33,893 nucleotides of DNA from a bacterium (GTDB lineage: Bacteria; Fidelibacterota; UBA2242), in the NCBI GenBank assembly GCA_018895675.1, contig JAHIOG010000495.1, positions 1 to 33,893 on the forward strand. Reading direction: 5' to 3'. A program made the position numbers and the translations under genes. The notes under the pieces are model-generated. The model was not told where the DNA came from. It was given only the letters and a program-made list of their open reading frames with translations, and made no database searches. Of this stretch, positions 4,745 to 33,893 are shown in pieces. Each line of letters begins with the position of its first letter. Position 1 is the stretch's first letter.

Positions 4745-5181
4745 ATCTCGAAACTCCTCTTTTAATCCATTGAATTTTAACAATTCGGTGTGCATTTCAC
4801 AAGCATTAGAATTTTCTTTTACCAGATGGCAACAAATCTGTTCTCCAATGTAATGTGTAAATAACTCACTATTTGTCATTCAAAATCAAAAATGCCGGTA
4901 CAAACAGCACAATATATTCATTGCGTTAATACAAAGATAAATTAAATTACAAAACAGATAAGGAACCAAAAATGACGATACAATTGCCTATTATCTTTTA
5001 TTCAATATAAATGTAAAAGGATTAAATATTTGGGTCAAGTCTTTGATAAATAAGCATCTATATAAAAAATCAAATGAAACTAAAAATATTATCAATAGCC
5101 CAGCCCTTTAGGGCTGTGATTAAGAAATACCACAACAAAGCCGATACGCCGTTCACGGCATTCCAAAAAGGTTGAGAAGAC

Positions 5182-9266: not shown

Positions 9267-9444
9267 AAAACCAATTTCCGGACGGCGAAGCCGGACTAAA
9301 TTGGTTTTGGTCTCTTCCCAAACATGAAACCCATTTGATCCGGCGACCGCCGGATTGAAAATAGGTTTCTTTAGATCAACAAGCCGGATTAAAAATGGGT
9401 TTTTTTAGGTATTTTTCTAATCAAAAAGCCATTGCTTTACTTTT
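9267..9444. repeat. REP-like composite repeat, copy A (two long imperfect palindromes; overlaps the 3' end of the RAYT gene)
   Basis: Hairpin 1 at 9267-9308: AAAACCAATTT-CCGGACGGCGAAGCCGGAC-TAAATTGGTTTT. Hairpin 2 at 9326-9369: GAAACCCATTTGATCCGGCG-AC-CGCCGGATTGAAAATAGGTTTC. The unit recurs at 10013-10155. Extra half-sites AAAACCAATT(T)CCG occur at 9220 and 9998. Confidence 0.75.
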
Positions 9445-9983
9445 TTATATTCATCTATACCATCGTTTACAAAATCCGCGTATTCATCTAGGCGTCTAAA
9501 ATATGTGCCGTAAAGACTAACCTGAAAATCAGCCTGACTCTGACTTATCACATTTCCATAATTTGAAAATTCCCATTCCTCCGGTTTATTGACCAATTTT
9601 GCCTTGACAGGATTAAGATGGATATATTTACATAAATATATTGCATAGTTTTCGTCATCGACTAAAATACTTTTAAAGGGTCCTTCAAAAACATGTCCGC
9701 TTTGATAGTATTTACGGTTAAAATATTTTGCGTAGGCCAATTGTAATCTCTGAAAATATTTGGATATCTCATCATCAGATTTCGTTTTTATATAGAAATG
9801 AAAGTGATTAGGCATGAGACAGTACGCCGGAATCCAAAACTTTTCCTCAATCTCAAGTTCTTGTGCTCTGTTTATAACCCATTTATAATCGGAAAGATTT
9901 CTAAACAGGGTCATGTGATTATTCCCACGATTAAACACATGTATGAGTGAATTTTTAATAAAGTTCAGATAACGATAAGGCAT
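9417..9983 (-). CDS. REP-associated tyrosine transposase (RAYT) / IS200-like HUH Y1 transposase
   Basis: 188 aa with the HUH motif (PNHFHFYIKT) and the catalytic Tyr helix (YIHLNPVKAKLV) typical of COG1943/RAYT proteins. It is flanked on both sides by REP-like palindromes. Confidence 0.8.
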   Translation of the reverse strand: MPYRYLNFIKNSLIHVFNRGNNHMTLFRNLSDYKWVINRAQELEIEEKFWIPAYCLMPNHFHFYIKTKSDDEISKYFQRLQLAYAKYFNRKYYQSGHVFEGPFKSILVDDENYAIYLCKYIHLNPVKAKLVNKPEEWEFSNYGNVISQSQADFQVSLYGTYFRRLDEYADFVNDGIDEYKKVKQWLFD

Positions 9984-15807: not shown

Positions 15808-17496
15808 CTAAACCGCATCATACTGGAAATAAACCGGCTGGAACATTTTACTCTTTACAATCTCAAGAAGATTTTCAGGTCTTTTTTCCCAGGCAATACC
15901 TTCAGAATATGCAACTTCGCAGACAGAGACGGCGATATGAGCTGAAATTTTCCTGATATCATTTAGATCAGGGTAAACTCTACCCTTTTTCAAATCCTCT
16001 TTACTAACCAAATTAGCCAGAGTTTTGGCAGCAGCATAGAACATGGAATCCGTTATTTTGGTTGCTTTACAAACAATAGCACCCAATCCAACTCCCGGAA
16101 AAATATACATATTATTCCCCTGACCAGTTGCATAAGTTTTTCCTTTGTATTTTATCGGTTCAAAAGGGCTTCCACTTGCATAAACAACATTGCCGTCCGT
16201 CCATTCATAAGCTTGAGAAGGAGTACATTCTGATTTTGATGTTGGATTTGACAGAGCGAAAATCACCGGGATATCCACATGTTTTTTCATTTCACGAACA
16301 ATTTTCTCATTGAATGCTCCGGGTTGCTTACTAACTCCCATAAGAATTGTCGGCTTTACATTCTTCACAGCATCCAGAAGTGTTTCGATATATTTTTCCT
16401 CACGGGCATACGGAATTTTATGTTCTGCAAGTTTATCTCCACGGGTAGTAGTAACAAGTCCTTTACTATCTAAAAACCAGAATCTTTTTCGGGCTTCCTG
16501 CTCTGATAGACCTTTCTCAACCATTCCTGCAACGATCATATCTGCAATTCCAACCGCTGCAGAACCTGCTCCTAAAAAGATAATCCTCTGGTCGGATAGT
16601 TTTCCCTTTGTTATCCTTAAGCCTGCCAGAAGTCCGGCAAGAGCAACTCCTCCGGTTCCCTGTATATCATCATTAAAACATAAAAGCTTTTCTCGGTATT
16701 TTTTTAACAATGGAAAAGCATGATCATTAGTAAAATCCTCAAATTGGATCAAAGCTTTGGGCCAGCGTTCGTGTGCAGCTACAACACATTCATCGATTAT
16801 ATCATAATACTTTTCGCCAGTAATGCGACGATGCTTTTCTCCCAGATATAACTGGTCTTTCAGTAGATTTTCATTGTCAGTTCCAACATCAATCACCACA
16901 GGTAATGTTCCTGATGGGTGTATTCCTGCACAAGCAACATATAAAGCTAATTTTCCTATGGGAATACCTATTCCACTTGCACCCAGATCGCCAAGTCCTA
17001 ATATTCTACTACCATCAGTGACGACAATAACGTTTACTTTTTCTTCTGGCCAATTATTAATTAACTTTTTAAAATTTCCCTTTGCCTTTGCCGGCATGTA
17101 CATTCCTCTTGTTCGTCTGAAAATGTGACCATACTGCTGGCATGCCAATCCCACCGTTGGTGTATAAATAATCGGGGTCATCTCCTCTAAATTTCTCAGC
17201 AATAAAGCATAATAAAGAATTTCATTGCGGTCGTGCAGAGCTTCCAGAAAGATATATTTCCCAATATCGGTATCTTTACGGCGATAGTTCTCCGTTACCC
17301 TTTGAACCTGCTCTTCAAAAGTGGAAACATGAGGTGGTAATAACCCCTGAAGATTAAATTCTTCTCTCTCTTTTTCCGAAAAAGCTGTTCCCTTATTAAG
17401 AATAGGGTCCCTTACAAGGTCAATTCCTTTTTTAGAAACCTGTAACACCTCTTGTTTATGATGTTCCATCGTAGAATGTTCCTTCGGATTGGGCAT
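15808..17496 (-). CDS. maeA: NAD(P)-dependent malic enzyme, large (E. coli MaeA/SfcA-like, eukaryotic-type) form
   Basis: 562 aa: LNKGTAF...ER..F.L.GLLPP, IYTPTVG.AC, VVTDGSRILGLGDLG..GIGIPIGKL.LY, FNDDIQGTG.V.LAG, FLGAGSA..GIA, LSNPTSKSEC. Confidence 0.9.
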   Translation of the reverse strand: MPNPKEHSTMEHHKQEVLQVSKKGIDLVRDPILNKGTAFSEKEREEFNLQGLLPPHVSTFEEQVQRVTENYRRKDTDIGKYIFLEALHDRNEILYYALLLRNLEEMTPIIYTPTVGLACQQYGHIFRRTRGMYMPAKAKGNFKKLINNWPEEKVNVIVVTDGSRILGLGDLGASGIGIPIGKLALYVACAGIHPSGTLPVVIDVGTDNENLLKDQLYLGEKHRRITGEKYYDIIDECVVAAHERWPKALIQFEDFTNDHAFPLLKKYREKLLCFNDDIQGTGGVALAGLLAGLRITKGKLSDQRIIFLGAGSAAVGIADMIVAGMVEKGLSEQEARKRFWFLDSKGLVTTTRGDKLAEHKIPYAREEKYIETLLDAVKNVKPTILMGVSKQPGAFNEKIVREMKKHVDIPVIFALSNPTSKSECTPSQAYEWTDGNVVYASGSPFEPIKYKGKTYATGQGNNMYIFPGVGLGAIVCKATKITDSMFYAAAKTLANLVSKEDLKKGRVYPDLNDIRKISAHIAVSVCEVAYSEGIAWEKRPENLLEIVKSKMFQPVYFQYDAV

Positions 17497-17534
17497 TTAC
17501 ACTCCTTATTTTTAAATTTTTTAAAAAGAACAAT

Positions 17535-17746
17535 AACGGGTTAATCAACAAATAAATCGTCAGGCTTAATATGATTTTTTACTTTTTTATCGACCATTGG
17601 TCCATGAATAAATTTTCTCTTATGAAATATACGTGGCGCAGTTCTTGAAACAGTTAAGCTGGCATCCATTATAAAAAGGATTTTTTCATTACCTTTCTCT
17701 TTTAAAGTGGCTTCCATAGCATCTTGCAAATTAGTCTCCCGAGTAA
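17535..17746. repeat. ~210-bp duplication, copy 1 (matches 20055-20266 at about 92%)
   Basis: Aligned by eye at a constant offset of 2520 nt. I counted about 16 mismatches over ~200 nt and no indels. It covers the last ~65 codons, the stop and 6 nt of 3' flank of the larA-like gene. Confidence 0.85.
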
Positions 17747-17879
17747 CTACAAACCTTATACTCTTTAGCGGTTTTAATGTTAAATCGAAAACCTCTTTTT
17801 CTTTGACAATATTCAAAATTTTAGTGTCTTCAAAGTGTTTAAAAAGCTTTCTGGGATAATGATAAACTATCGCATACAA
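17541..17879 (-). pseudogene. 3'-terminal remnant of a larA-like gene (TTG-initiated 112-aa track ORF)
   Basis: The C-terminal 65 aa (TNLQDAMEATLKEKGNEKILFIMDASLTVSRTAPRIFHKRKFIHGPMVDKKVKNHIKPDDLFVD) parallel the C-terminus of the 445-aa LarA-like protein. Only weak similarity lies upstream (LKPLKSIRFVV vs LKPELLNRIFI). There is no N-terminal catalytic domain, and the 'start' is TTG. Confidence 0.6.
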
Positions 17880-18232
17880 ATTGATTTTTTCACGGTTAAG
17901 ATTGTTGATTTTTCTGTAATTCGCAAAAAATGTCCGAAAAATTCCTCTAATGCTTCTGTATCAAAAGATTCGCTAGCCGATTTGAACGAAATTAGTTTAT
18001 GTTCATTTATTTTCTTCAAATCTTCACCGAAAATCCGAAATAGTACTGAGAAATGAGGTTTTCCCTCTAATCTTTGTACAACGATAGTGTCAACGTATTG
18101 TGATTGCTGTATAAGACCAACCTCGATTTTTGCCTCAAAACCCAGCTAAGAAAATAGTGGCGCTGAAACCAATCCTAAAAGTCGATGCCAATTAGTTCTT
18201 TTTGACTCATTTTGGCTCGCCATTTAAATAAC
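17867..18232 (-). pseudogene. decayed ORF of unknown function interrupted by an in-frame TAG
   Basis: From ATG (cat at 18230-18232): MASQNESKRTNWHRLLGLVSAPLFS-TAG-LGFEAKIEVGLIQQSQYVDTIVVQRLEGKPHFSVLFRIFGEDLKKINEHKLISFKSASESFDTEALEEFF... open to the stop at 17867. It has 122 codons with one internal stop. TAG is a genuine stop in this genome (the histidine kinase at 9217-9219 ends in TAG). Confidence 0.3.
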
Positions 18233-18248
18233 TAATTCACGAATTAAT

Positions 18249-19964
18249 TTACAGAGCATTTACCAATTTTCCAAGCAGCGCTGGTTTCGATAATAGATCC
18301 GATGACTTCAAAAACTCACAGCGTTGCTCAAAACGATCTTTTATTAATGCTATATATCCTTCTGGATTGGTGCGCTTATATGGATTATATTTTTCATAAT
18401 AACCTGGAAGTAACTTATCGATAGATTCTTTTGTAGGAATCATCGCTCCAGGTAATAATTTCCAATCTTCCCACTCAATTTGGTCCATCAAAATACCAGT
18501 GTGAATCGTAAGCGAAGTCTGGAGTTCAATATTTTCCAAATGCTCATCAGAGGATTTCCAGTATCCAGATGAATTGAAAGTGTAACACTCTGCACCCGTT
18601 TCTAACACTTTTAGAAATGCCTCGACATCTTTATAAAGTTCATAAACTCTAAATGGATTTGCAAATGGTTCAAAAACCAATTTTGCTAATTCCTCCTCTG
18701 TTACATTTTCGGCTCTGCTTCTTTTTGTAATTAATGCCGCTCCCATCGCAACAGCAAGATATTTGTCTTTATATTTTAGTGCAGGCGGTAAAATTGTATC
18801 TTTCATGAGCCAGACCAGTGCTTTAGGAAAACTACACCTATTTACCCATTTTCCAAGAAGGTCGCGGTCAAAAAGAGCCCGTCCATTTGCCTGACGAATA
18901 TCACGTCCGAGGGGAAGTAACTTTCCATCGTTTTTTATCAAAGCGTGATTCATAACCGCAAGACAATACTCCCAATCCGGATGGTCTGTATTTCGACTAT
19001 CTGTTTTATCAAAGAGCGAAGGTTCCCAAACGCGACAAACCTTTCCTTCTGTGTCAATCTGAAATGCATCATCGTGAAGCGTCGCTTTCTTAAAACCTTT
19101 AGGTAATGTACCTCCATTATCATGTGAATTTGTATGAGAAGACTTTCCAGTTCCCGAAAGTCCAAAAAATGCTATAGATTTCTTTCCTAAAACTCTATGT
19201 TCTTTATTATCACATTCAGAAAAATCAATCTCTTTAATGCCGCCATGACAAGCAGCCATTCCCAATCTCATACCGGAAGACCACGCAAGAGTCAGGGTCC
19301 CTTTTTTACGTTCACCAAAATAGCGCATCCCCAAATTGAAAATCACATTATGTTTTTCGTCAACTAAGGCAAGTTGCGGCGCACCAACATTATGATAATA
19401 TGGGTCATCACATGTCCATTCGTTAAATGCCACAATTATAATATCCTGAATTGGCAGAACTTTGCTGTTTTCATATTCTTCTGTCAATTCGATTGGGTTA
19501 AAATTTGACAACCAGTTAAACACATTACTTGCATCGTTTGTTGATGTAACGAAAGTTGCCTTTATCATTAAATCGGGATCCAATCCTATCACTGCTTCTG
19601 CTTTAATAAGGTCATAATGTTCAAGCTGATATATTGCTTCTCTAATATCACCTTCAACCTTTTTCTTATCTGCTGCAGGAATCCGATTATAAAATCTCCT
19701 CGCTTTTGCAGTTCTACCAATAATTTTACCATGACAATCATTTAGGACCTTTGCTCCTTTTGGCAGTCCAAAAAGCGCAGCTGTCCGAGGATATATTTCT
19801 AAGTCTGTTTCTGATACACCAGCTTGGTTTTTTGCCATTTCATAAGCTTCAGCAATGTTTATCTTTCGCACTTTTGGATTTAAAAGTACTGCTTCAGCAA
19901 TTGCTCGAAGCGGAGACATTTCTGTTAAATCTTTGTAATACTTATCACTTGGTAAACTCGACAT
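18249..19964 (-). CDS. pckA: phosphoenolpyruvate carboxykinase, divergent ATP-type
   Basis: 571 aa with a kinase-1a P-loop FFGLSGTGKSS, a YFGERKKG block (canonical YAGEMKKG) and an LHDDAF block (canonical IGDDEH). Order and spacing fit ATP-PEPCK, but several signature residues differ. Confidence 0.75.
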   Translation of the reverse strand: MSSLPSDKYYKDLTEMSPLRAIAEAVLLNPKVRKINIAEAYEMAKNQAGVSETDLEIYPRTAALFGLPKGAKVLNDCHGKIIGRTAKARRFYNRIPAADKKKVEGDIREAIYQLEHYDLIKAEAVIGLDPDLMIKATFVTSTNDASNVFNWLSNFNPIELTEEYENSKVLPIQDIIIVAFNEWTCDDPYYHNVGAPQLALVDEKHNVIFNLGMRYFGERKKGTLTLAWSSGMRLGMAACHGGIKEIDFSECDNKEHRVLGKKSIAFFGLSGTGKSSHTNSHDNGGTLPKGFKKATLHDDAFQIDTEGKVCRVWEPSLFDKTDSRNTDHPDWEYCLAVMNHALIKNDGKLLPLGRDIRQANGRALFDRDLLGKWVNRCSFPKALVWLMKDTILPPALKYKDKYLAVAMGAALITKRSRAENVTEEELAKLVFEPFANPFRVYELYKDVEAFLKVLETGAECYTFNSSGYWKSSDEHLENIELQTSLTIHTGILMDQIEWEDWKLLPGAMIPTKESIDKLLPGYYEKYNPYKRTNPEGYIALIKDRFEQRCEFLKSSDLLSKPALLGKLVNAL

Positions 19965-20054
19965 AATTCATTTCCTTCCTTTTAAATAAAAAATTCATCA
20001 CAATTGAAATTACAAATGGTATATAATTATTTATTGGTAGTCAGAAAGCATAGG

Positions 20055-20266
20055 AACGGGTTAATCGACAAATAAATCGTCAAGCTTAATATGATTTTTT
20101 ACTTTTTTATCTACCGTCGGTCCATGAATAAATTTTCTCTTATGAAATATACGCTGTGCTATTCGTGGAACAGTTAAGCTGGCATCCATCATAAAAAGGA
20201 TTTTTTCATTACCTTTCTCTTTTAAAGTGGCTTCTATAGCTTCCTGCAAATTAGTATACCCTTTAA
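20055..20266. repeat. ~210-bp duplication, copy 2 (intact larA-like 3' end)
   Basis: See copy 1 (17535-17746). Confidence 0.85.
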
Positions 20267-21398
20267 TAAATATTCTATTCAATAATTCTGGTTTTAAATT
20301 TGTGTATGCCCATAAGGATGCCCATTTCATAATTTCTGCCATTTTAGCTGCCTTATGATAACCCAATTTATATCCTTTTTCAATCTTATCAAAAACTTCA
20401 TCCGGGTTTCTGGCTTCACTCAATAATTTTATGAAACTCTCTCCACCTATACCTTTTCGACAACTCGAAACCAAAATGAGAATCCCATTTGGGTTCAACG
20501 CAAGTTTGCTATTATCAATTGCTTTCTGAGATTGGTAAAGGTCGATATCCATCGGATAAGGTGCAACTGCGACCACGATATCTGCCCTATCTCTGATTTC
20601 CACTGAAAATACGTCTTTTGCTTTTTCACATGCCAATTTGAATGCTTTGTGAGTTTCTCCACAGGCGCAATAATAGATTTTATGATCTTTATTCAGAACA
20701 GTTTGAATTGAAAAAATCTGTTTGTCTTTTGCTATACAATCATAGGCTTCTTTGATGTCGTCTCTAACCGGATTTCCTTCGGTTACAAGAGCTTTTGCTG
20801 TCGCATTCAAAGCCAGTTCATGATTTCGTTCAATAGTCTCATATCCGGAAATTCCGGGTAAAAAGGACTTTGCTCCACCAGTATAGCCTGCAAAATAATG
20901 AGGCTCAACCGATGTGATATAGACTATCTTTTCTGCTTCAATTACCAGTTTATTAAAAAAGACTTCAGTGCCATTTTTAGTTACACCAACAAAGACATTC
21001 CCAGCTTCATTCTTAGAATCGTGGGAAAATATTTTTTTTTCCAATTCGCGAAAATGATATCCAAAAATTTCAAGGTATTCATCTTTGCTTGGAGCTCTAT
21101 GAGCACCTGTAGCAACTAAGAACTTAATGCTTTTATTCAGTATTTTATCCCAGAGCAGGTCTATTATTCTCGCACTTGGTGTAGGTCTGGTAGCATCATT
21201 TATAATAAAGAGAATGGGCTCATTGCCTTTTGCAAAATCGTCAAAACTTTTAAAATCAACCGGGCTGTTTAATGCATCAAAGAGAACTTCTTTTTCAGGT
21301 CGAATTTCAACAGTATTCGGATATACTATTTCTCCGATATTTTGTTCGGGGAGAGATACTGTTAATTCTTCTCCCCAATAAGGAATTTTTATCTGCAT
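20061..21398 (-). CDS. LarA-like nickel-pincer-nucleotide-dependent 2-hydroxyacid racemase/epimerase family protein (DUF2088)
   Basis: 445 aa. Motifs match, as I recall them, the LarA catalytic and cofactor set: INDATRPTP (Arg), VATGAHR (His), EPHYFAGYTGGAKS (His plus the cofactor-tethering Lys), ERNHE (Ni-ligand His). The start ATG overlaps the upstream mdh stop (TAATG at 21396-21400). Confidence 0.8.
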   Translation of the reverse strand: MQIKIPYWGEELTVSLPEQNIGEIVYPNTVEIRPEKEVLFDALNSPVDFKSFDDFAKGNEPILFIINDATRPTPSARIIDLLWDKILNKSIKFLVATGAHRAPSKDEYLEIFGYHFRELEKKIFSHDSKNEAGNVFVGVTKNGTEVFFNKLVIEAEKIVYITSVEPHYFAGYTGGAKSFLPGISGYETIERNHELALNATAKALVTEGNPVRDDIKEAYDCIAKDKQIFSIQTVLNKDHKIYYCACGETHKAFKLACEKAKDVFSVEIRDRADIVVAVAPYPMDIDLYQSQKAIDNSKLALNPNGILILVSSCRKGIGGESFIKLLSEARNPDEVFDKIEKGYKLGYHKAAKMAEIMKWASLWAYTNLKPELLNRIFIKGYTNLQEAIEATLKEKGNEKILFMMDASLTVPRIAQRIFHKRKFIHGPTVDKKVKNHIKLDDLFVD

Positions 21399-22330
21399 TA
21401 AATTAATTGTTCAGATTCAATTTTTTCTATAACTTCTCTTACTTTATCAGCAGAAAGATGAAGAGCCTGCTTCTCTTCCGTTGTAAGTGATAATTCAATT
21501 ATTTTTTCAACACCATTTTTTCCAATTACAATCGGTACACCTGCAAATAGACCGTCGATTCCATATTCTCCCCTCAAATAGGCAGAACAGGGAACGATTC
21601 TGTTTCTGTCTCGCACAATGCATTCAACCATCTCAGCAGCAGAACTTCCGGGTGACCAGTAAGCACTACCGGTTTTAAGGTAGGCAACGATTTCTCCACC
21701 TGCTTTTCTGGTTCGTTCAATTAATCTGTCTATCTTGTCTTTTGGCAGCAAATCTGTAATCGGGATACCATGCACTGTGGAATATCTGGGTAATGGGACC
21801 ATAAGGTCTCCATGACCGCCAAGTACTAAAGCAGTTACATTTTTGGGACTGACTCCAAGTTCTTCAGCTATAAAATATCTGAATCTTGATGAATCCAGTA
21901 TGCCAGCCATCCCAATAACTTTTTTTAAGGCAAATCCTGTGACTTTTAGAGCAACATAAGCTAAAATATCAAGCGGATTTGTAACTGTGATCACCACAGC
22001 ATTAGGAGCATATTTAGCAATGCTTTCCGATACACTCTTCATAATTTTTACATTATCACGAAGCAAATCTTCCCTGGACATACCTGGCAATCTCGGTTTA
22101 CCGGCTGTTACAACAACCACTTCAGAATCTTTGATCATTGATATATCGGTATATCCATTAACAGATACATCGTATTTTCGGATAGGTGAGGCATGTACAA
22201 TATCCAAAGCTTTTCCTTCAGCCCATCCGTCGACAATATCAATTAATACTATATCTGAAACTTTTTTTTCAATTAAATATAGTGCTGTTGCTACACCAAC
22301 GTTTCCACTTCCAATAATACTAACTTTCAT
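21398..22330 (-). CDS. mdh: malate dehydrogenase (LDH-like, type 3 MDH)
   Basis: 310 aa: IIGSGNVG, TAGKPRLPGMSREDLL (Arg at the LDH/MDH discriminator position, so malate/oxaloacetate), TNPLD, GMAGILDSSRFR, GGHGDLMVPL, KTGSAYWSP. Confidence 0.9.
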   Translation of the reverse strand: MKVSIIGSGNVGVATALYLIEKKVSDIVLIDIVDGWAEGKALDIVHASPIRKYDVSVNGYTDISMIKDSEVVVVTAGKPRLPGMSREDLLRDNVKIMKSVSESIAKYAPNAVVITVTNPLDILAYVALKVTGFALKKVIGMAGILDSSRFRYFIAEELGVSPKNVTALVLGGHGDLMVPLPRYSTVHGIPITDLLPKDKIDRLIERTRKAGGEIVAYLKTGSAYWSPGSSAAEMVECIVRDRNRIVPCSAYLRGEYGIDGLFAGVPIVIGKNGVEKIIELSLTTEEKQALHLSADKVREVIEKIESEQLI

Positions 22331-22339
22331 GATGACCCC

Positions 22340-23263
22340 CTAAATTCCCATTGATTCAATAGTTTTATTGATTATATCCGCTGATACCTGCAGTTCTTTT
22401 CTTATAGGCAGGGATAATTCAAGTTCGATTATTTTCTCAACGCCATTCTTTCCAAGTTGAACTGGTACACCTAAACAAATATTTTTATAACCATACTCTC
22501 CATCAAGGCACGTCGGAACACATAGTATTGCTCTGGTATCATTTATGATTGCACCCACAGTTTCTGCTATGGAAGCACCGGGAGAATACATAGATGTCTG
22601 CCTTTTTAACAGTGATAGAATAGTTGTTCCTGCTTCCCTGGCTTCTGATATTATTTTATCAACTTTTTCTTTGGGAAGTAACTCATTGATCGGTATGCCA
22701 CAAACCCGAATAAATTCTGGAGGTATAACCATGAATTTATGATGACCTCCTAAAACAAGGGCACTTACTTCAACCGATGTAACGCCAAGTTCCTGTGCAG
22801 TATATTCACAAACCCGCGTAACATCAAGTTTCCCTGCAACTCCAATTACCTTCATTCTGTCAAATCCTGTCTTTTTAAAAGTGTAATAAGTTAAAGTTGT
22901 AACAGGTTCAGTTATAACAATAACGATTGATTTCGGAGCATACTTTTTGACATCTTCTATTATCGGATCAATAATCTTCACATTAACTTCAAGTAACTCA
23001 AGACGTAAGGTGTTGGGTTTTCTAACTTTACCTGCAGTTATTACAACAACTTTAGAGCCTTTAATATCTTCAATATGAGAAGATCCCTGAATTTTAATGT
23101 CATAACCCCGTAAAGGTGAAGCTTCAGCAAGGTCAAGTGCACTTCCTTCTGCTTTACCTTCTAAAATATCAATAAGCATAATATTCGCAATACCCATCTC
23201 AGCCAAATAAAATGCCGCTGCAACCCCTACATTGCCACTGCCAATAATTGAAACTTTCTCCAT
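22340..23263 (-). CDS. divergent LDH/MDH-family 2-hydroxyacid dehydrogenase (second mdh paralog)
   Basis: 307 aa on the same scaffold (IIGSGNVG, TAGKVRKP..LRLELL, GVAGKLDVTR, GGHHKFMV). Signature blocks are altered: TNPLD becomes TEPVT, GGHGD becomes GGHHK, and MSRDDL becomes TLRLEL. GGAGG RBS present. It ends 9 nt before mdh. Confidence 0.75.
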   Translation of the reverse strand: MEKVSIIGSGNVGVAAAFYLAEMGIANIMLIDILEGKAEGSALDLAEASPLRGYDIKIQGSSHIEDIKGSKVVVITAGKVRKPNTLRLELLEVNVKIIDPIIEDVKKYAPKSIVIVITEPVTTLTYYTFKKTGFDRMKVIGVAGKLDVTRVCEYTAQELGVTSVEVSALVLGGHHKFMVIPPEFIRVCGIPINELLPKEKVDKIISEAREAGTTILSLLKRQTSMYSPGASIAETVGAIINDTRAILCVPTCLDGEYGYKNICLGVPVQLGKNGVEKIIELELSLPIRKELQVSADIINKTIESMGI

Positions 23264-23692
23264 GATACCTCCTAATATATTATTATTAATAACCTTAAAA
23301 GATTATATTTTTTTATTTTAGTGATTTTTTCTTCTTTACCACAAGGAATTTCAACTACCATTTGGATTTCTATACAATATCAATTTCCTATTTACTTACA
23401 TCTTTTATGATTCTTAATATTTTAAATTAATTTATCCAATTATAAAAGAAATTTTATAGATATAAATATACCAAAAAAATCATCAAAATGGCTGAAGTAT
23501 AACATCCCCCTGAATTTTATTGAGAAAAGTAAACACTTCTGGAAGACCAAACCTAAAATATCATCGCTAAGAGAAATTTTCTTAGGTTGAGTCTTCTGAA
23601 AGCTATTTCCCTATCTTATCCTAAAATACTACTTATTATCAGCAAGTATTAAAGATTTATTGTGATTTTGAAATCAATAAAAAATTAATTAC

Positions 23693-25030
23693 CTAATTTA
23701 CTTTAGCTACTACTTTATGAAGTTCCGGATTCTTTTCACACTCTTTCTCAAATTCCCTATCACGAAGTGAATTTCTATAATAGGGCGATTGGAATCTGTA
23801 AGTATATCTTACCTTATTACCCCTCGATTTTTCGTAAAGAGCTACAACATCTTCTATAAAGACTCTTTCTTCATCTGTTGGAATTACATAAATCTTTACC
23901 TTGGAATCCTCAGCACTGATATCACATTCCGCATTTCTTGTCTTTGCAATCTTATTTTTATTTTTATCATATTTGATTCCCATAAAATCCAGACCATCCA
24001 GAGCCCTTGCCCTTATAAGATCGCACATCTCACCAACTCCTGCTGTAAAGACGATAGCATCAATACCACCTATTGCCGCTGCGTAGGCACCAATATATTT
24101 CCTAATTCTGTATGTCTCAATATCAAGTGCAAGTTTAGCTCTCTCATCGCCTCTCTCGGCTGCCTCGATTACTTCACGTCTATCATTATATTCACCTGTT
24201 ATACCCAGGATACCGGACTTTTTATTAAGTATTGAATTCATCTCATTGGCTGAATAGTTCTCCTTATCCATTATATAGAAATCAATAGCTGCATCATGGT
24301 CTCCAGCTCTCGTCCCCATCACCAATCCTTCTAACGGTGTAAATCCCATACTTGTATCAAAAGATATCCCATTTTTAACTGCATTCAAAGACACACCATT
24401 CCCAATGTGACATATGATAAGATTACATTCAAAAGGATCTTTTCCCAGGAGAACCGATGCCCTTCTTGAAACATAAAGAAGAGATGTCCCATGAAATCCA
24501 TATCTTCTTATTTTATATTTCTCATACCATTCATAAGGCAGAGCGTACGTAAATACATATTTAGGCATTGTTTGGTGCCATGCTGTATCCATAATTGCCA
24601 TATGTGGAACATTAGGTAACAACTCTTTTGCTGCTTCTATACCAAGTATATTTGGTAGATTATGAAGTGGTGCCAAATCTGCTAACTTCTTAAATTCCTC
24701 AACAACTTCATCGGTTATAATAACAGATTTAGCAAACCTCTCACCACCATGAACAACACGATGTCCAACTGCGGATATTCCCATAAGTTCCTTGATTACA
24801 CCCTCTTTTAGAGATGTAAGCATTTCAATAATAAGTTTTATCGCCTCGCGATGTGTTGGACACTCACTTTCAACCCTGACACTGTCCTGCCCAGTGACTT
24901 CCTGTATGCAAAAGCTGCCTTTACTTGTCACTCTCTCAACAATTCCAGTTGCAATAGTTTGCTTTTTGTTCCAGTCATATAGCCTATATTTCACAGATGA
25001 GCTTCCACAATTAAGGCATAATATGATCAT
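23693..25030 (-). CDS. ackA: acetate kinase with a ~45-aa C-terminal extension
   Basis: ILCLNCGSSSVKY, GHRVVHGG, FHGTS, ICHIGNG.S, GTR.GD.D, FTAGVGE, IPTDEE are all AckA/ASKHA signatures. The ATG overlaps the stop of the upstream REC-malic enzyme gene (ATGA at 25027-25030). Confidence 0.95.
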   Translation of the reverse strand: MIILCLNCGSSSVKYRLYDWNKKQTIATGIVERVTSKGSFCIQEVTGQDSVRVESECPTHREAIKLIIEMLTSLKEGVIKELMGISAVGHRVVHGGERFAKSVIITDEVVEEFKKLADLAPLHNLPNILGIEAAKELLPNVPHMAIMDTAWHQTMPKYVFTYALPYEWYEKYKIRRYGFHGTSLLYVSRRASVLLGKDPFECNLIICHIGNGVSLNAVKNGISFDTSMGFTPLEGLVMGTRAGDHDAAIDFYIMDKENYSANEMNSILNKKSGILGITGEYNDRREVIEAAERGDERAKLALDIETYRIRKYIGAYAAAIGGIDAIVFTAGVGEMCDLIRARALDGLDFMGIKYDKNKNKIAKTRNAECDISAEDSKVKIYVIPTDEERVFIEDVVALYEKSRGNKVRYTYRFQSPYYRNSLRDREFEKECEKNPELHKVVAKVN

Positions 25031-26778
25031 TTCGCCTCCTGTTTTTTAGGCATTTTTATAAAACCACCTTTCATTAATGACTCAGTTTCTTCCCGAGCAA
25101 GTTTTATCATGGTTTCCGCCTTCTTATACAATTCCTCTCTTGACATCATTATTCTGGCAACACCTTGTTCGATTGCTTTCATTCCCACAGCAGTCGCTTC
25201 TCTTGGATAAACTTCCCATTCATCCATACTGGGGATTATGTACTCTTCTGAAAAACCTTTATCTTCAGCACATTTTGCGAGCTCGTAAGCTGCCGCTATA
25301 CACATCTCATCTGTTATTGTTTTTGCCATTACATCAAGAGTTCCCCTAAATATTCCAGGAAATCCCAGAGAATTGTTGACCTGATTAGGAAAATCCGATC
25401 TTCCGGTTGCAACTATTTTTGCGCCAGCCTCTTTTGCTTCCCAGGGCCATATCTCTGGAACAGGATTGGCACATGCAAAAACTATTGCATCGTTTGCCAT
25501 GCTTTTTACCCACTCAGGTTTAATTACACCTGGCCCGGATTTCGACAAAGCAATACAGACATCTGCACCTTTCAGAGCTTCAGGAATTCCTCCTATTCTT
25601 CCTTCGACATTTGTTTTTTCACACATTTCCCATTTCTCTTTATTCTCTGGATTATCAAGGTCTTTCCTATTTTTATGAAGTATACCCTTAGTATCGACCA
25701 TTATTATATTTTCAGGATTAACACCTGCACTAATTATAACTCTTGCAACACACAAATTCGAAGCACCGGCTCCTATCATTGTTATCTTTGCTTCTCCTAT
25801 CTCTTTCTCAACAAATTTTAATGCATTTATTAATCCAGCTAAAGTTACTGCCGCTGTTCCTTGCTGGTCATCATGCCACACAGGAATATTCATTTCTTTT
25901 CTTAATCGGTCCAAAATATAGAAGCACTTCGGTTTAGCAATATCCTCCAGATTTATTCCACCAAATGTTGGCTTCAACCACTTACATGCAGTAATTATTT
26001 CTTCTGGATCCTTGGTATCTAACATTATAGGAAAAGCGTCAACACCACCTAAATATTTAAAAAGGATTGCCTTTCCCTCCATTACAGGCAAGCCGGCTTC
26101 AGGTCCTATATCACCAAGACCTAAAACTCTTGTTCCATCAGATACAACTGCTACAAGATTACCCTTACTTGTATGCTCATAAACCTTTTGAGGATTCTTG
26201 TTAATATCACGGCAAGGTTCAGCAACACCAGGTGTATACCAGATTGCAAAATCATTGAAATCCCTGATACAGCATTTAGGTACAACTGAAATCTTACCAT
26301 GATAATAAGGATGCAACTCCATAGCATCCTCTCCCGGTTTCCTGGCCTTGGCAAGAAGTTCTTCAAGAGATACTGTTTTGGTAAGTAGCTTAACTCTTTC
26401 TAAGAGCACTTTAGCCGGAACCGGCTTTTCAAGAAAGTCATCTACGGGCAGAAGTTGTGTACCGGCTATTTCCTTAAAATTTGTTTCCATTATCTTCTGG
26501 ATACTAGTTATTATTAATATCGGTATCTTGGAACACTCAAAATATGGCGAATCCCTGTCCGGATTTCTTAGTTTATTAACGACTCCCAAACCAGCTGTAA
26601 TATGTTCCATCATAATATCGAGTACAATTAAGTCAGGCTTAACTTCCTTGACTTTTTCAAGACCCTCTTTTGCCGAATATGCGCAAGTACATTCATAAGA
26701 ATTTTTTTCCAGTATATTCTTGACTGCTTTTACGAAATCAACATCATCATCAATAATAAAGATTCTCTTTTTGTCCAT
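25027..26778 (-). CDS. response-regulator receiver domain fused to a NAD(P)-dependent malic enzyme (short prokaryotic type)
   Basis: 583 aa. Residues 1 to about 125 form a CheY-like REC (IFIIDDDVD, DLIVLDIMM, ILIITS, DDFLEKPV). Residues from about 150 to the end form a complete malic enzyme (YHGKISV, WYTPGVAEPC, VVSDGTRVLGLGDIGPEAGLPVMEGK, GGINLEDI, HDDQQGTAAV, MIGAGASN, FACANPVPE). AGGAGGG RBS present. Confidence 0.85.
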   Translation of the reverse strand: MDKKRIFIIDDDVDFVKAVKNILEKNSYECTCAYSAKEGLEKVKEVKPDLIVLDIMMEHITAGLGVVNKLRNPDRDSPYFECSKIPILIITSIQKIMETNFKEIAGTQLLPVDDFLEKPVPAKVLLERVKLLTKTVSLEELLAKARKPGEDAMELHPYYHGKISVVPKCCIRDFNDFAIWYTPGVAEPCRDINKNPQKVYEHTSKGNLVAVVSDGTRVLGLGDIGPEAGLPVMEGKAILFKYLGGVDAFPIMLDTKDPEEIITACKWLKPTFGGINLEDIAKPKCFYILDRLRKEMNIPVWHDDQQGTAAVTLAGLINALKFVEKEIGEAKITMIGAGASNLCVARVIISAGVNPENIIMVDTKGILHKNRKDLDNPENKEKWEMCEKTNVEGRIGGIPEALKGADVCIALSKSGPGVIKPEWVKSMANDAIVFACANPVPEIWPWEAKEAGAKIVATGRSDFPNQVNNSLGFPGIFRGTLDVMAKTITDEMCIAAAYELAKCAEDKGFSEEYIIPSMDEWEVYPREATAVGMKAIEQGVARIMMSREELYKKAETMIKLAREETESLMKGGFIKMPKKQEAK

Positions 26779-26804
26779 TTTCCCTCCTAATTATCACTAT
26801 CTCT

Positions 26805-26828
26805 CCTTTCCAGTAGTTGTTGGAAAGG
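26805..26828 (-). promoter_or_regulatory. perfect 8-bp hairpin in the leader of the REC-malic enzyme gene
   Basis: CCTTTCCA-GTAGTTGT-TGGAAAGG, 26 nt upstream of the ATG at 26778 and about 13 nt upstream of its AGGAGGG RBS. No U-tract follows on the minus strand. Confidence 0.25.
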
Positions 26829-26935
26829 TCGAGGAAGTAATTCACATAAAACCATAATATCATAAGAATCGATGCAAATAACTGTAAATAATGTTTTATA
26901 ATTGCTCATCTCATTCTTATAAGCATCTAACTCTA

Positions 26936-27724
26936 CTAAACATATTTTCGTATCTTTGCCAATATATGTTCAGACTTTATTGGTTTAGGAATAAACTCAT
27001 CTACCTTATGTGTACCAGCCATAGTACGCGCAAAATCGGGCTTTCTAAATTGCTTATCAAGAGCTGTTAGCATAATAATGGGTATATTATATGTTCGAGT
27101 ATCTGTCTTTAATTCACGTGATACTGTAAAGCCGTCTTTATCTGGAAGCATAGCATCTATTAATATAAGATCAGGCAGCATCGCCTTAGCCATCTTAATT
27201 CCCCCATTTGCAGTATCTGCAGACTGTACTTCAAAATCATTCGATTCTAATAACTCCCGCATTGAGCGTACAAAATCTATATCACCATCAATAATCAGTA
27301 CTTTCTTTTTATTTGTCGGTTCAGAGACAGTGATTCTCCTTCGAGTAATCAATGCATAGACTCTTGCAAGTAATTCTTTTGGATCAATGGGTTTCTCCGC
27401 AAAATCATCGGCATTGTGGTATAAAGCGATTCTCTCTGCGTATTTTTTTCCCTCAAATTCGGTACTGACAGATGTCAAAATAAGGATTGGTATCTCCAAT
27501 AAGCCTGTCATTTTCTTTAACTCACTGCATATTGAAAAACCATCTTCACCCGGCAACATTATGTCCAATATTACAAGGTCAGGTTTCTCTTTTTTAAACT
27601 TCCGTAGCGCCTCTTTTCCATCGAATGCCGTAACAATATCATGTCCGTTACTTTCCAATATTTTAGTTGTAGATTTGCAAAAATCGACATCATCATCTAC
27701 GAGTAAAATTTTTGCTCCCTTCAT
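26936..27724 (-). CDS. tandem double-receiver (REC-REC) response regulator without an output domain
   Basis: 262 aa. REC1: ILLVDDDVD...DLVILDIMLPGEDG...ILILTS...FAEKP. REC2: VLIIDGDID...DLILIDAMLPDKDG...IIMLTA...FIPKP. GGAGGAG RBS present. The start overlaps the upstream kinase stop (ATGA at 27721-27724). Confidence 0.85.
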   Translation of the reverse strand: MKGAKILLVDDDVDFCKSTTKILESNGHDIVTAFDGKEALRKFKKEKPDLVILDIMLPGEDGFSICSELKKMTGLLEIPILILTSVSTEFEGKKYAERIALYHNADDFAEKPIDPKELLARVYALITRRRITVSEPTNKKKVLIIDGDIDFVRSMRELLESNDFEVQSADTANGGIKMAKAMLPDLILIDAMLPDKDGFTVSRELKTDTRTYNIPIIMLTALDKQFRKPDFARTMAGTHKVDEFIPKPIKSEHILAKIRKYV

Positions 27725-28824
27725 TTCTCCTCCTCACTTTTTGGCAAAAGCACTGTAAAAGTACTCCCCTTCTCAGGTTTACTTGTTACCTTGATAGTAG
27801 CGGAATGAGCATCCATTATCCTTTTTACAATTGATAAGCCCAAGCCGGTACTATCAGATTTAAATTCAACTTGATAAAATTGTTCGAAGATAAAAGGCAA
27901 TTTATCCTCTGGAATTCCGATACCATTATCAGAAATACTCACCTCTATATATCCATTCTTTTCTTTTGCACCAACAAACAGACTTCCACCATAATTACCA
28001 TATTTTATTCCATTATCAACCAAATTTAAGAACGCCTGTTCCAGAGTTTCCTTATCAGCAGAAATTGTAGGAAGATTTTCAGGAATATCCATCTTTAGAG
28101 TAATGTTCTTTTCCTTTGCAATTGTCTGCATCAAATTAAAAATATTCGTGAAAATTGAAGTTATATTTACCGATGCCAATTTTTTTACAATCCTATTAGC
28201 ATCTATCTTTGATAGATTAAGCCAGTCCTTGATTAAATATATCAGCTGGTCAATGCGAATTTTAGACCTCTCCAGCATCTCTCTTTGTTCATCATTGACT
28301 TCACCAGCCATACCACCGAGAATTACTTCAAAATATTGCTGCACAGCAACAAGAGGAGTTCTAAGTTGATGTGAAACCATACTAATGAATCCTTCTCTCA
28401 TTTCATTTTTCTCTTGAAGTAAGCGATTAGATTCAATAGTCAATCGCCTTTTCTCAAGGGCTCTTTTAGTGATCAGTCGTAGCTCTTCAGGAGTAAACGG
28501 CTTAGGCAAAAAATCGTATGCGCCTTTTTTCATCGATTCGATTGCCGAATCTATTGACGCATAACCCGTTATCACTATAGTAACAATTTCCGGGTCAATT
28601 TTTTTAATCTCTTCAAGCACAACCATACCACTTATCCCGGGCATTTTCAGGTCAACAAGCACAAGATCGGGATTTATATCTTTAACCTTTTGCATGCCAG
28701 AAATACCATCGCCTGCAATATCTACTATATAACCACTTTTCACGTATGTCTGCACACATGCATCACACATGGATTCATCATCATCAATAATAAGTATTGT
28801 AATATTTTCTGTTCTATTAATCAT
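27721..28824 (-). CDS. REC-HisKA-HATPase_c histidine kinase whose only input domain is a receiver
   Basis: ILIIDDDES...DLVLVDLKMPGISG...VITGYAS...DFLPKPF, then a coiled linker, the H-box SHQLRTPL, N box LVDNGIKY, and G boxes DNGIGI and GLGLSI. There is no TM, PAS or GAF segment. The track ORF begins at a TTG (28917); I prefer the ATG at 28822-28824, but neither has a good RBS. Confidence 0.85.
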   Translation of the reverse strand: MINRTENITILIIDDDESMCDACVQTYVKSGYIVDIAGDGISGMQKVKDINPDLVLVDLKMPGISGMVVLEEIKKIDPEIVTIVITGYASIDSAIESMKKGAYDFLPKPFTPEELRLITKRALEKRRLTIESNRLLQEKNEMREGFISMVSHQLRTPLVAVQQYFEVILGGMAGEVNDEQREMLERSKIRIDQLIYLIKDWLNLSKIDANRIVKKLASVNITSIFTNIFNLMQTIAKEKNITLKMDIPENLPTISADKETLEQAFLNLVDNGIKYGNYGGSLFVGAKEKNGYIEVSISDNGIGIPEDKLPFIFEQFYQVEFKSDSTGLGLSIVKRIMDAHSATIKVTSKPEKGSTFTVLLPKSEEEK

Positions 28825-29043
28825 CTTACTTGTGGTAGCGTCAAATTCTATACCAAATAACAAAACAGCCTGATGGATCAAATCCCAATTGGCTGTTATA
28901 CAATAACTTGCGCCCAAAATATATATTCAGGCAGCTATTTTTGAATAGTTAGAGTTGCTTATTATGTGAAGAATTCGACCTCAGTCATGGAGAATTATTC
29001 CCCAGAGTTGCCTCGAGTACATCTGGTACATCGTTTGCATTTT

Positions 29044-32429: not shown

Positions 32430-33893
32430 CTAAATATTTTTCTTTATTTTCTCAGTCTTTTCTCTACTCAGGCTCATTAAATCCTGACAATTTAAAGTTT
32501 GCTTATCGGTTTTTTTCTTCACTACGATCATTCGCTCTGTACACGAGAAACAAGGATCGAGGCTGCCGATTGCAATAAGGACATCTGCTATTTGTTCATT
32601 CTTAATGATTGCCGGAACAACCTGAAGATTGGGATAGGTCGGGGCTCTTACTTTCCAGCGATAAGGTCGATTTTCACTACCAGTTAACACGTAATGTATG
32701 GCTTCACCACGTGGGGCTTCTACCACACAGATAGCTTCTTTATTAGGTGGAATCTCTTCCACGTGAGCCATGATCTCTCCTTCAGGCATTTCTCTGAGTG
32801 CTTGTCTTATGATCTTTACTGATTCAAATAATTCCTCTAATCGGACTAAAGTACGAGACCAACAACACCCATCCTGCTTAACTGGAACTTTAAATTGCAG
32901 CTTGTCATAGGCAGCATAGGGATGATCCCTACGAGAGTCGATATTCACTCCTGAGGCTCTAGCAACAGGACCGACCACACACATATCTAAAGCCTCATCC
33001 TTTGTTAGTACACCCACCTTTTTTAATCTGACATGCAAAGAAGTGTCGCCAAGAATAGCATTCACTAGAGCCTTTAATTCCTTCTCAATTTTATCGATTG
33101 TTTCATAAACTTTTGGATGTAATTCCTTGTGAATATCTCTTCTTACTCCTCCTATTAGGTTCATACCGTAAGTTTTTCTGTTGCCGGTAATCTGTTCGCA
33201 CAACCACATTACGGGTTCCCGGATGCGCCAGCTATGCATCAGGATGGTATCAAATCCAATGATATGACCAGCAATCCCAACCCATAAGAGGTGACTTGCT
33301 ATCCTTTCCAGCTCCAGCATAATAGTGCGGATGTATTGGGCTCGGGGAGGCACTTTTATGTCTGCAGCTTCTTCAATAGCCTGACAGTAACAGCATGAAT
33401 GCACAAATCCACAAATACCGCAAATGCGTTCAGCCATAAAGCATATTTGGTTGTAGGTCTGGACGCTGTCAGCGAGTTTTTCTATACCTCTATGATTATA
33501 GAATCCCCTGTAGTCACAGCCTACGACTTTCTCACCCTCAACAAAGACCTTAAAGTAAGCGGGCTCTTCTAAAACCGGAAAAAAAGGACCAATGGGTACA
33601 ACCTTGGCACCTTTAGGTGGTGGTGCTAATTTCACCCTGTTTTGAGGTCGGGCAGGAGGTTTGTAGTCGTAAGGGAAGTCTCTACATAAAGGGTAAACAT
33701 CATCGGGCCAATCATCAGCAAGTACCAATCGACGGGGATCCGGGTGATTCCGTGGATGAACCCCGATCATGTCACGAACTTCCCGCTCTGCCCAGTTCGC
33801 ACCCGGGATTATTGGAGTGATGGAGTCTATAAAAGGGATGTTGGGATCAATATGTGTATGGATGCACACAAACAGTTTTTCGTTATCCAGTGA
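32430..33893 (-). CDS. group 4 [NiFe]-hydrogenase large subunit, NuoC-NuoD-like fusion (HycE-like); 5' end beyond the window
   Basis: The reading frame stays open to position 33893 (SLDNEKLFVCIHTH...), so the track's GTG at 33869 is not the real start. The NuoC-like part is PGANWAEREVRDMIGVHP..HPDPRRL. The large-subunit Ni-binding motifs RICGICGFVH (N-terminal) and DPCFSCTER (C-terminal) are retained, which separates it from complex I NuoD. Confidence 0.9.
   Translation of the reverse strand, partial: SLDNEKLFVCIHTHIDPNIPFIDSITPIIPGANWAEREVRDMIGVHPRNHPDPRRLVLADDWPDDVYPLCRDFPYDYKPPARPQNRVKLAPPPKGAKVVPIGPFFPVLEEPAYFKVFVEGEKVVGCDYRGFYNHRGIEKLADSVQTYNQICFMAERICGICGFVHSCCYCQAIEEAADIKVPPRAQYIRTIMLELERIASHLLWVGIAGHIIGFDTILMHSWRIREPVMWLCEQITGNRKTYGMNLIGGVRRDIHKELHPKVYETIDKIEKELKALVNAILGDTSLHVRLKKVGVLTKDEALDMCVVGPVARASGVNIDSRRDHPYAAYDKLQFKVPVKQDGCCWSRTLVRLEELFESVKIIRQALREMPEGEIMAHVEEIPPNKEAICVVEAPRGEAIHYVLTGSENRPYRWKVRAPTYPNLQVVPAIIKNEQIADVLIAIGSLDPCFSCTERMIVVKKKTDKQTLNCQDLMSLSREKTEKIKKNI

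Follow-up and report, generated by a model that had tools for sequence, protein, structure and literature searches.

A receiver-malic enzyme fusion and an acetate kinase gene in a two-component cassette from an uncultured Fidelibacterota bacterium suggest phosphorylation control at the pyruvate/acyl-phosphate node

Introduction

Allosteric or transcriptional mechanisms are usually given for control of the phosphoenolpyruvate (PEP)-pyruvate-oxaloacetate node. Response regulators with enzymatic outputs, such as CheB, PleD/WspR, and RpfG, are known, and acetyl phosphate acts as a phosphodonor to response regulators and is a global signal in E. coli. Receiver domains on standard metabolic enzymes are recognized but little studied, and a narrow phyletic distribution has been reported for them (PMC5847659). 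Here we describe a four-gene module on a 33,893-nt contig of a Fidelibacterota (UBA2242) bacterium (GenBank assembly GCA_018895675.1, contig JAHIOG010000495.1; the whole stretch is referred to below as the window). The module encodes a histidine kinase with an N-terminal receiver (REC-HK), a dual receiver (REC-REC), a malic enzyme fused to a receiver (REC-ME), and an acetate kinase (AckA).

A comparison with the closest described systems shows both shared features and clear disparities. As in the enzymatic-output regulators, a canonical receiver is fused to an enzyme whose catalysis is predicted to be under phosphorylation control, but the output here is a central carbon enzyme rather than a signaling enzyme, and the receiver is part of a larger cassette with its own REC-HK. 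No description of REC-ME, of receiver-AckA fusions, or of the cassette was found in the literature, the tables of Galperin's 2006 and 2010 censuses lying outside that search. Hybrid MaeB enzymes carry an inactive phosphotransacetylase (PTA) domain that senses acetyl-CoA, and their regulation runs through the malic enzyme dimer (PMC7902834). REC-ME has the same small malic enzyme catalytic fold (340 bits to PDB 6zng/6zn4) and likewise has a regulatory domain appended to malic enzyme at the acetyl-CoA/acetyl phosphate node. Unlike these enzymes it has an N-terminal receiver and no C-terminal PTA domain: the protein ends at residue 583, about 30 aa beyond the malic enzyme fold, and shows no Pfam match to PTA_PTB, so REC-ME is not a MaeB of this kind. 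Where the hybrid enzyme contains a PTA domain, the cassette has separate Pta and Ack enzymes, encoded nearby and apparently active.

The acetyl phosphate signaling of E. coli and of Borrelia Rrp2 also links the Pta-AckA node to receivers, and the REC-HK receiver is NtrC-type like that of Rrp2 (PMC2940757). The known link is physiological and not written in gene structure, whereas here ackA is operonic with, or fused to, a receiver. The "four-component" RedCDEF system of Myxococcus is likewise reported to work without a histidine phosphotransfer (HPt) domain, through one kinase, another protein resembling a kinase, a dual-receiver protein, and a single receiver (PMC2755868). Red controls development through protein-protein interactions, whereas the terminal receiver here is covalently attached to a metabolic enzyme. 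Malic enzyme is also regulated by the MaeKR two-component system (PMC5457438). MaeKR/DcuSR and AtoSC set an extracytoplasmic carboxylate-type sensor kinase over malic enzyme or acyl-CoA/acetate genes, and relatives of our module carry an AtoS/AtoC-like pair, but those systems are transcriptional only, the scores of the relatives fall below the family cut-offs, and the window has no such pair. Lastly, the acetate kinase belongs to the same long-form subfamily as Treponema TvAckA (PDB 9DV8), with the same C-terminal extension and catalytic residues, although no two-component context has been reported for the treponemal enzyme.

On balance we think it probable, with some reserve, that the module is a kinase cascade exerting post-translational phospho-control over enzymes of the pyruvate/acyl-phosphate node, as one variant of a widely conserved cassette. 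A preliminary description of this DNA had read it as a possible acetyl phosphate-linked phosphorelay with internal input beside a group 4 hydrogenase operon. Our analysis supports the conserved unit and the acetate kinase link in that reading, but not the purely internal input, the strict phosphorelay, or a conserved group 4 hydrogenase.

Results and Discussion

The receiver-malic enzyme fusion

Domains were called with Pfam, with NCBIfam used for family-level scores, and relatives were compared by gene context. The calls confirm the domain content of the four consecutive minus-strand genes, REC-HK, REC-REC, REC-ME, and ackA, and the tally of four receivers and one kinase core (Response_reg, HisKA, HATPase_c).

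REC-ME (25027..26778, minus strand; 583 aa) is composed of an MME-type receiver at aa 1-133, with the signature LD[IV]MME[HD]..AGF ... AGT.LLPVD.FLEKPV, and a small MaeB-type malic enzyme at aa ~138-583. Its Pfam scores are 59.5 bits for Response_reg (cut-off 30.2), 108.5 bits for malic, and 87.9 bits for Malic_M. Across 11 fused sequences, with receiver identity as low as 54%, residues D10/D11/D12, D54, S92, and K118 of the receiver do not vary. In the malic enzyme part, Y181 (WYTPGV), K236 (MEGK), E278/D279 (NLEDI), D303/D304 (HDDQQGTA), and G336/G338 (GxGxxG) are invariant in 18 sequences; from malic enzyme motifs we take these to be the catalytic Tyr and Lys, the metal-binding Glu/Asp/Asp, and the Rossmann residues. 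The best PDB matches are small malic enzymes (3nv9, E = 5e-143; 1ww8, E = 2.7e-142), and the malic enzyme part is 75-80% identical to unfused 447-aa enzymes of many phyla. The fusion is nearly linkerless, with receiver helix 5 continuing into the malic enzyme N-terminal helix, which aligns with residue 1 of the unfused enzymes. With their predicted catalytic and phospho-acceptor residues intact, REC-ME and its neighbors look functional. The exact REC-ME sequence is not in the protein collection, while its same-contig neighbors MBU4445974, MBU4445976, and MBU4445977 are; the depositor may use another start or a pseudogene flag.

The receiver could instead be a pseudo-receiver, that is, a phosphorylation-independent oligomerization or scaffold domain that recruits malic enzyme to AckA or to signaling proteins. 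Its D+3/D+4 positions are unusual (MME[HD], not MxPG), it has an insertion before beta-4, and in REC-REC the acidic pocket of the C-terminal domain is degenerate. We nevertheless consider a pseudo-receiver very improbable: no REC-ME sequence departs from the phospho-acceptor Asp, the two pocket Asp, the Ser/Thr, or the Lys, and in the wider family the receiver always has a cognate-looking kinase next to it.

Conservation of the module among REC-ME carriers

REC-ME is found in about 30 protein clusters at 61-96% identity. Carriers at 90% identity or more are labeled Candidatus Marinimicrobia/Neomarinimicrobiota, and more distant ones WOR-3 and Cloacimonadota. Genomic context was obtained for ten REC-ME lineages (loci are numbered with the prefix L). 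Synteny holds among these relatives, with ackA directly after REC-ME in nine of the ten and REC-HK upstream of REC-ME in at least eight. At L001/2/3/6 (REC-ME 96% identical) the order is a Cache-type sensor kinase (Cache-HK), a sigma-54 activator, REC-HK, REC-REC, REC-ME, AckA, two malate dehydrogenases (MDH), LarA, malic enzyme, aconitase, and citrate synthase. This order is kept from Cache-HK through AckA at L007 (WOR-3; 82%), L086/87 (72%), and L092 (67%), and L090 (85%) has the gene order of the window, including a gene resembling PEP carboxykinase (PEPCK). Immediately ahead of REC-ME, L088/89 (70%) add a second REC-REC and a PTA_PTB gene to the cassette and L005 (61%) adds a butyrate kinase-like gene and PTA_PTB, so that PTA_PTB is directly upstream of REC-ME in two lineages. 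The remaining loci are smaller: REC-ME and AckA on a short contig at L008 (Cloacimonadota; 74%); the same pair at L091 (79%), flanked by Hdr/Mvh-like genes on one side and a group 3 hydrogenase on the other; and a receiver, REC-HK, and REC-ME with no ackA at L004 (67%). Since it recurs in many independent lineages, the arrangement is far beyond chance.

A broadly distributed signaling cassette

A scan of one genome per species with the REC-ME receiver as query returned three fused loci and 77 loci with a stand-alone receiver of ~133 aa, the latter in Chloroflexota, Aminicenantes, Spirochaetota, Desulfobacterota, Planctomycetota, Actinomycetota, and others. A full-length REC-HK ortholog lies within 4 kb on the same strand at 42 of the 77 stand-alone loci, with at least 40% identity in 21 of the 42. 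A full-length Cache-HK ortholog lies within 5 kb at 36 of the 77, both kinases are found at 30, and a sigma-54 activator is present at eight. REC-HK, the dual receiver, and the MME-type receiver travel together across phyla. NCBIfam has no named family for any of the three, all matches being below cut-off. Set against the breadth of the stand-alone loci, the few fusions show that the malic enzyme fusion is a rare, lineage-restricted derivative of a broadly conserved, apparently unnamed signaling unit.

Other fusions were seen in passing. In Aminicenantes, L009 (4161-6067) encodes a fusion of an NtrC-like receiver with an HdrC-like Fe-S/CCG protein; an HdrB-like gene comes next, and the cluster also contains a REC-HK and MME-type receiver pair. 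Further fusions of the receiver family are a ferredoxin-REC protein (P0206) and a REC-REC protein with a HisA/HisF-like barrel (P0216).

Acetate kinase and the receiver-AckA fusions

The acetate kinase of the window (23693..25030, minus strand) is a long-form enzyme of 445 aa that scores 476 bits to Pfam Acetate_kinase and 491 bits to TIGR00016 (cut-off 293) and aligns to PDB 9dv8 over residues 1-444 (559 bits). Residues N7, R91, H180, R241, and E387/388 are invariant in our alignment, the catalytic residue list being that of the Treponema vincentii enzyme (PMC11717252). The conserved C-terminal helical extension of ~45-50 aa is of the TvAckA type; it was considered as a module-specific trait and rejected as a known subfamily feature. 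The ATGA overlap between the REC-ME stop and the ackA start at 25027-25030 is confirmed and reads CAGGAGGCGAAATGATC, with a strong ribosome-binding site (RBS) within the REC-ME gene. From this overlap and RBS, ackA is predicted to be translationally coupled to REC-ME.

An exhaustive search with the REC-ME receiver plus junction recovered the same receiver subtype fused directly to AckA, in sister lineages and in two topologies. AckA-REC proteins (539-550 aa) form about 20 clusters at 64-100% identity. In the two contexts obtained, L093 and L094, REC-HK is immediately upstream, overlapping the fusion gene in L094, and the two REC-HKs are 45% and 51% identical to that of the window. REC-AckA proteins (586-595 aa) form six clusters at 57-100% identity, and their AckA part is 64% identical to the window AckA, C-terminal extension included. 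At L096 the gene order is REC-HK, a butyrate kinase (Buk)-like gene, PTA_PTB, REC-AckA, REC-REC, Cache-HK, and a receiver. L030 has an unfused AckA between REC-HK and a receiver and no malic enzyme; this locus also has a 582-aa open reading frame (ORF) with no Pfam or NCBIfam match (4959-6707) between its sigma-54 activator and REC-REC. Receiver-AckA fusions beside an orthologous REC-HK are much stronger evidence than adjacency that AckA is within the signaling unit. Together with the PTA_PTB genes beside REC-ME, they mark the acyl-phosphate node as the common theme of the family, and malic enzyme is one of at least two enzymes to have captured an MME-type receiver.

The fusions also bring in a reading in which AckA, with Pta/Ptb where present, sets a local pool of acetyl phosphate, and this compound is the physiological donor to REC-HK or to the MME-type receiver. 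Such a loop would be a homeostat, or an acetate/ATP sensor, throttling malic enzyme (the supply) or AckA (the drain); it overlaps with a kinase cascade, the main difference being where the signal enters. It would fit the coupling of ackA to REC-ME in nine of ten lineages, the PTA_PTB gene adjoining REC-ME or REC-AckA in L005, L088, and L096, the two independent topologies in which a receiver is physically fused to AckA, the minimal [REC-HK][AckA-REC] pairs of L093/L094 with no other sensor gene adjacent, and the presence of AckA within the signaling cluster of L030 where malic enzyme is missing. Rrp2, a spirochaete NtrC-type receiver reported to be activated by acetyl phosphate (PMC2940757), provides a precedent. 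However, the kinase core is always present and the Cache kinase usually so, and a small-molecule donor is therefore not required. The fusions are read equally simply with AckA as a regulated output, like malic enzyme, and most loci where REC-HK is paired with the MME-type receiver (76 of 77) lack a nearby ackA. We regard an acetyl phosphate loop as possible but not probable. A more specific proposal, that AckA is a dedicated phosphodonor generator which turns ATP and acetate into acetyl phosphate for a fused or adjacent MME-type or REC-HK receiver, as a sensor or homeostat gating malic enzyme and AckA, seems to us rather unlikely. Acetyl phosphate as donor is compatible with all of the data and is made attractive by the fusions.

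REC-HK, REC-REC, and the two receiver classes

REC-HK (27721..28824, minus strand) consists of an NtrC-like receiver, a coiled-coil linker, HisKA, and HATPase_c, with Pfam scores of 90 bits for Response_reg (cut-off 30.2), 50 bits for HisKA, and 96 bits for HATPase_c. The H-box SHQLRTPL, with His152, and the DNGIKY, DNGIGI, FEQFY, and GLGLSI boxes are readable in the translation. The start had been placed at TTG 28917 but is most likely ATG 28824, giving 367 aa, because relatives are 363-367 aa long and the NCBI annotation (MBU4445977.1) is 367 aa; the 31 extra residues of the longer ORF are not conserved in relatives. REC-HK orthologs at 45-88% identity are found in all related cassettes, and the kinase core is PhoR/PnpS/WalK-like by NCBIfam, below cut-off. 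Pfam finds no transmembrane, PAS, GAF, or Cache-type input domain in REC-HK. The earlier statement that the kinase has no sensor beyond its own receiver stands insofar as only that domain precedes HisKA, but it does not extend to the module as a whole, as relatives have a Cache kinase. Elsewhere in the window the opposite strand (5182-9219, plus strand) encodes a hybrid histidine kinase of 1345 aa that has four or more PAS domains and ends in a receiver; in this genome it could provide another input to REC-HK, which looks like an orphan.

REC-REC (26936..27724, minus strand) has two stretches of Response_reg (151 bits). The reported ATGA overlap of the REC-HK stop and the REC-REC start is present at 27721-27724 and reads GAGGAGGAGAAATGAAGG, with a strong RBS within the REC-HK gene. 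By alignment the N-terminal receiver of REC-REC is fully canonical, as is the REC-HK receiver. The C-terminal receiver has DGD for DDD in its acidic pocket while keeping the Asp, Thr, and Lys, and across orthologs this pocket position is G, S, or D. An alignment of all receivers divides them into two classes. Class A is NtrC-like and contains the REC-HK receiver and the receiver of the relatives' sigma-54 activator, which are ~53% identical to each other. Class B has an insertion before helix 5, contains both REC-REC domains and the REC-ME receiver, and is PhoB/OmpR/PleD-like at the family level. The family-level matches agree with a two-tier wiring in which REC-HK would serve class B and Cache-HK would serve the activator.

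Phosphotransfer along the module had been described as a possible phosphorelay. Pfam gives no HPt family match in the four proteins or in the neighboring genes of relatives, so the cassette is not a strict His-Asp-His-Asp phosphorelay; its domain content is that expected of a kinase cascade or a branched two-component system.

An upstream sensor layer in relatives

The module had also been said to look like an internal relay rather than an environmental sensor. In most relatives REC-HK is immediately preceded by genes for an extracytoplasmic Cache_3-Cache_2/HAMP sensor kinase and a sigma-54 activator, and canonical -24/-12 promoters are found ahead of it. The cassette is therefore not purely internal. 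The relatives' Cache-HK and activator score best against AtoS and AtoC, below the cut-offs (255 vs 646 bits and 465 vs 714 bits, respectively). L005, L007, L086, L088, L071, and L075 have sigma-54 promoters in the interval that separates the activator gene from the receiver/kinase genes downstream of it. The canonical form (TGGCAC-N5-TTGC) is found in L005 (TGGCACGGGAATTGC), L086 (TGGCACAATTATTGC), and L088 (TGGCACAGATTTTGC), and L007 has TGGTATGAAATTTGC. A sigma-54 consensus search of the window found no good minus-strand site. A candidate degenerate -24/-12 element at 28841..28855 (minus strand) reads TGGTATAGAATTTGA, with GG-N10-GA rather than GC, and corresponds in position to the promoters of L007, L005, L086, and L088.

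A sigma-54 activator with matching promoters is also what would be expected of an ordinary pathway operon, in which the enzymes are clustered for one fermentation route and the two-component genes act transcriptionally through the activator. REC-HK and REC-REC would then merely tune the activator, for example as a phosphate sink, and the receiver on malic enzyme would have little effect. The whole 20-kb region encodes enzymes of the malate/oxaloacetate/PEP/tricarboxylic acid (TCA) cycle node, in line with this idea, and L091 has REC-ME and AckA without kinase genes. It is hard to explain, however, why the phospho-acceptor residues of REC-ME would all be kept in 15 sequences, down to 54-61% identity, if they had no function. 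The same receiver has been fused independently to AckA, and the REC-HK and receiver pair is kept in many phyla without an activator, which only eight of the 77 loci have. We consider an ordinary pathway operon improbable.

A model for control of malate-to-acetate flow

In the kinase cascade that we favor, the REC-HK core would phosphorylate the class B receivers, namely REC-ME and both domains of REC-REC, with REC-REC serving as a competing acceptor or buffer. REC-HK would itself be gated through its NtrC-like receiver. The signal would come from the Cache kinase in relatives, from acetyl phosphate as a possible second input, or from both. Because the REC-HK receiver is ~53% identical to the activator receiver encoded beside the Cache kinase, that kinase probably feeds two arms. 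The transcriptional arm in relatives would run from the Cache kinase through the activator and the sigma-54 promoter to the operon, and the post-translational arm from the Cache kinase through REC-HK to REC-ME. Small malic enzymes have an N-terminal extension that reaches over the dimer interface into the opposing protomer, and their active site is formed from both protomers (PMC7902834). In REC-ME the receiver is attached to this N-terminal arm, which crosses the dimer interface next to the shared active site, and phosphorylation would therefore change malic enzyme activity, presumably through a rearrangement of the phosphorylated receiver. The flux set in this way would run from malate to pyruvate, acetyl-CoA, acetyl phosphate, and finally acetate and ATP, with AckA catalyzing the last step. 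The combined evidence suggests that phosphorylation, and not transcription, tunes malate-to-acetate carbon flow in this uncultured anaerobe.

Several points weigh against this reading. No Cache-HK or sigma-54 activator is found within the 33.9-kb window, and the only sigma-54-like element there, TGGTATAGAATTTGA, is degenerate. L091 has REC-ME and AckA without a REC-HK within 10 kb, L004 has REC-HK and REC-ME without ackA, and ordinary clustering of pathway genes could also account for malic enzyme and AckA lying side by side. The proposed kinase-receiver partners are matched on adjacency and family-level similarity. Finally, an AlphaFold model of REC-ME built from an 18-sequence alignment has a mean predicted local distance difference test (pLDDT) score of 66.7, with the malic enzyme N-domain below 50, and its inter-domain geometry is unreadable.

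Intergenic regions

The only gap within the module, 157 bp at 26779..26935 (minus strand), contains a hairpin as reported, and a terminator scan finds none. The gap holds a sigma-70-like promoter (TTTACA-18-TATGAT, 26888-26859), an AGGAGG RBS (26783-26788), and the hairpin, which has an 8-bp stem (CCTTTCCA...TGGAAAGG, 26805-26828) with no T-run/U-run; the gap has a z of -2.5. The gap sequence is shared with the ~96% relative alone, the 82% relative already lacking it, and an Rfam scan of the whole window returned tRNA only, with no family match in the gap. We considered the hairpin as a regulatory RNA and dropped this candidate because it is conserved solely in the ~96% relative.

A long imperfect hairpin with a 16-bp stem lies ~100 nt past the ackA stop (23542..23596, minus strand); the z of the whole region, -1.7, is not significant, and the terminator scan did not call it. 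It lies in a 429-bp gap (23264-23692) with 30% GC and several sigma-70-like hexamer pairs, and a gap of equal length is found in L001. The hairpin may mark the end of the transcription unit, and the gap is probably a boundary between transcription units.

Flanking metabolic genes and redox context

Downstream of the module, at 15808..23263 (minus strand), are genes of malate, oxaloacetate, and PEP metabolism: two MDH paralogs, a LarA-type homolog, a PEPCK-like gene, and a second, large malic enzyme. Aconitase, citrate synthase, and isocitrate dehydrogenase genes are also downstream on the same strand. This metabolic gene order is shared with L001, L006, and L090, and these genes are context, outside the signaling core. 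Within 20061-23263 (minus strand), the tandem paralogs of the malate/lactate dehydrogenase family are ~50% identical and are followed by the LarA homolog, whose best score is to the nickel-pincer malate racemase LarAH6 (352 bits; cut-off 500). The MDH pair and the LarA homolog hint at an interconversion of D- and L-malate that would feed the malic enzymes. The PEPCK-like gene (18249-19964, minus strand) encodes a 571-aa PEPCK_ATP-like protein whose scores are well short of the family cut-offs (41.5 bits in Pfam; 91 bits in NCBIfam against a cut-off of 369); it occupies the same position in L090 and is absent from L001. The protein could be a PEP carboxykinase that has diverged, or else a related kinase. 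An IS200-like Y1 transposase homolog (9417-9983, minus strand) is located where the metabolic block gives way to the PAS kinase.

Upstream, the genes described as a group 4 hydrogenase operon are genuine group 4-type [NiFe] genes (Complex1_49kDa/NiFeSe_Hases, Oxidored_q6, NADHdh, Proton_antipo_M), but their adjacency to the module is unique to the lineage of the window. The large subunit (32430-33869, minus strand) has an N-terminal NuoC-like (30 kDa) domain fused to it and keeps both CxxC Ni-Fe ligand motifs, RICGICGFVH and DPCFSCTER. A conserved link to this hydrogenase was thus rejected, the group 4 enzyme not being conserved while other redox modules recur near the cassette. Hdr/Mvh-like flavoproteins, FlpD (MvhD), group 3 [NiFe] hydrogenase, and NfnA-like Fe-S/NAD-binding genes flank it in L091, L092, L005 (11916-18093), and L096 (2039-4902), which suggests a recurring link of the cassette to electron-bifurcating or H2 metabolism.

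Conclusions

The cassette of REC-HK, dual receiver, MME-type receiver, and Cache kinase occurs widely and seems not to have been studied, and the enzyme fusions therefore act as Rosetta stones for its target. Whether acetyl phosphate is a genuine physiological phosphodonor is a long-running question, for which the receiver-AckA fusions and the malic enzyme/AckA operon offer simple purified-protein test systems. If AckA does supply the donor, the cassette would be a case of natural, genetically encoded acetyl phosphate signaling rather than incidental cross-talk. If the favored reading is correct, a receiver on malic enzyme, or on AckA in sister lineages, would mean that several anaerobic phyla without cultured members control their central carbon flux directly by His-Asp phosphorylation.

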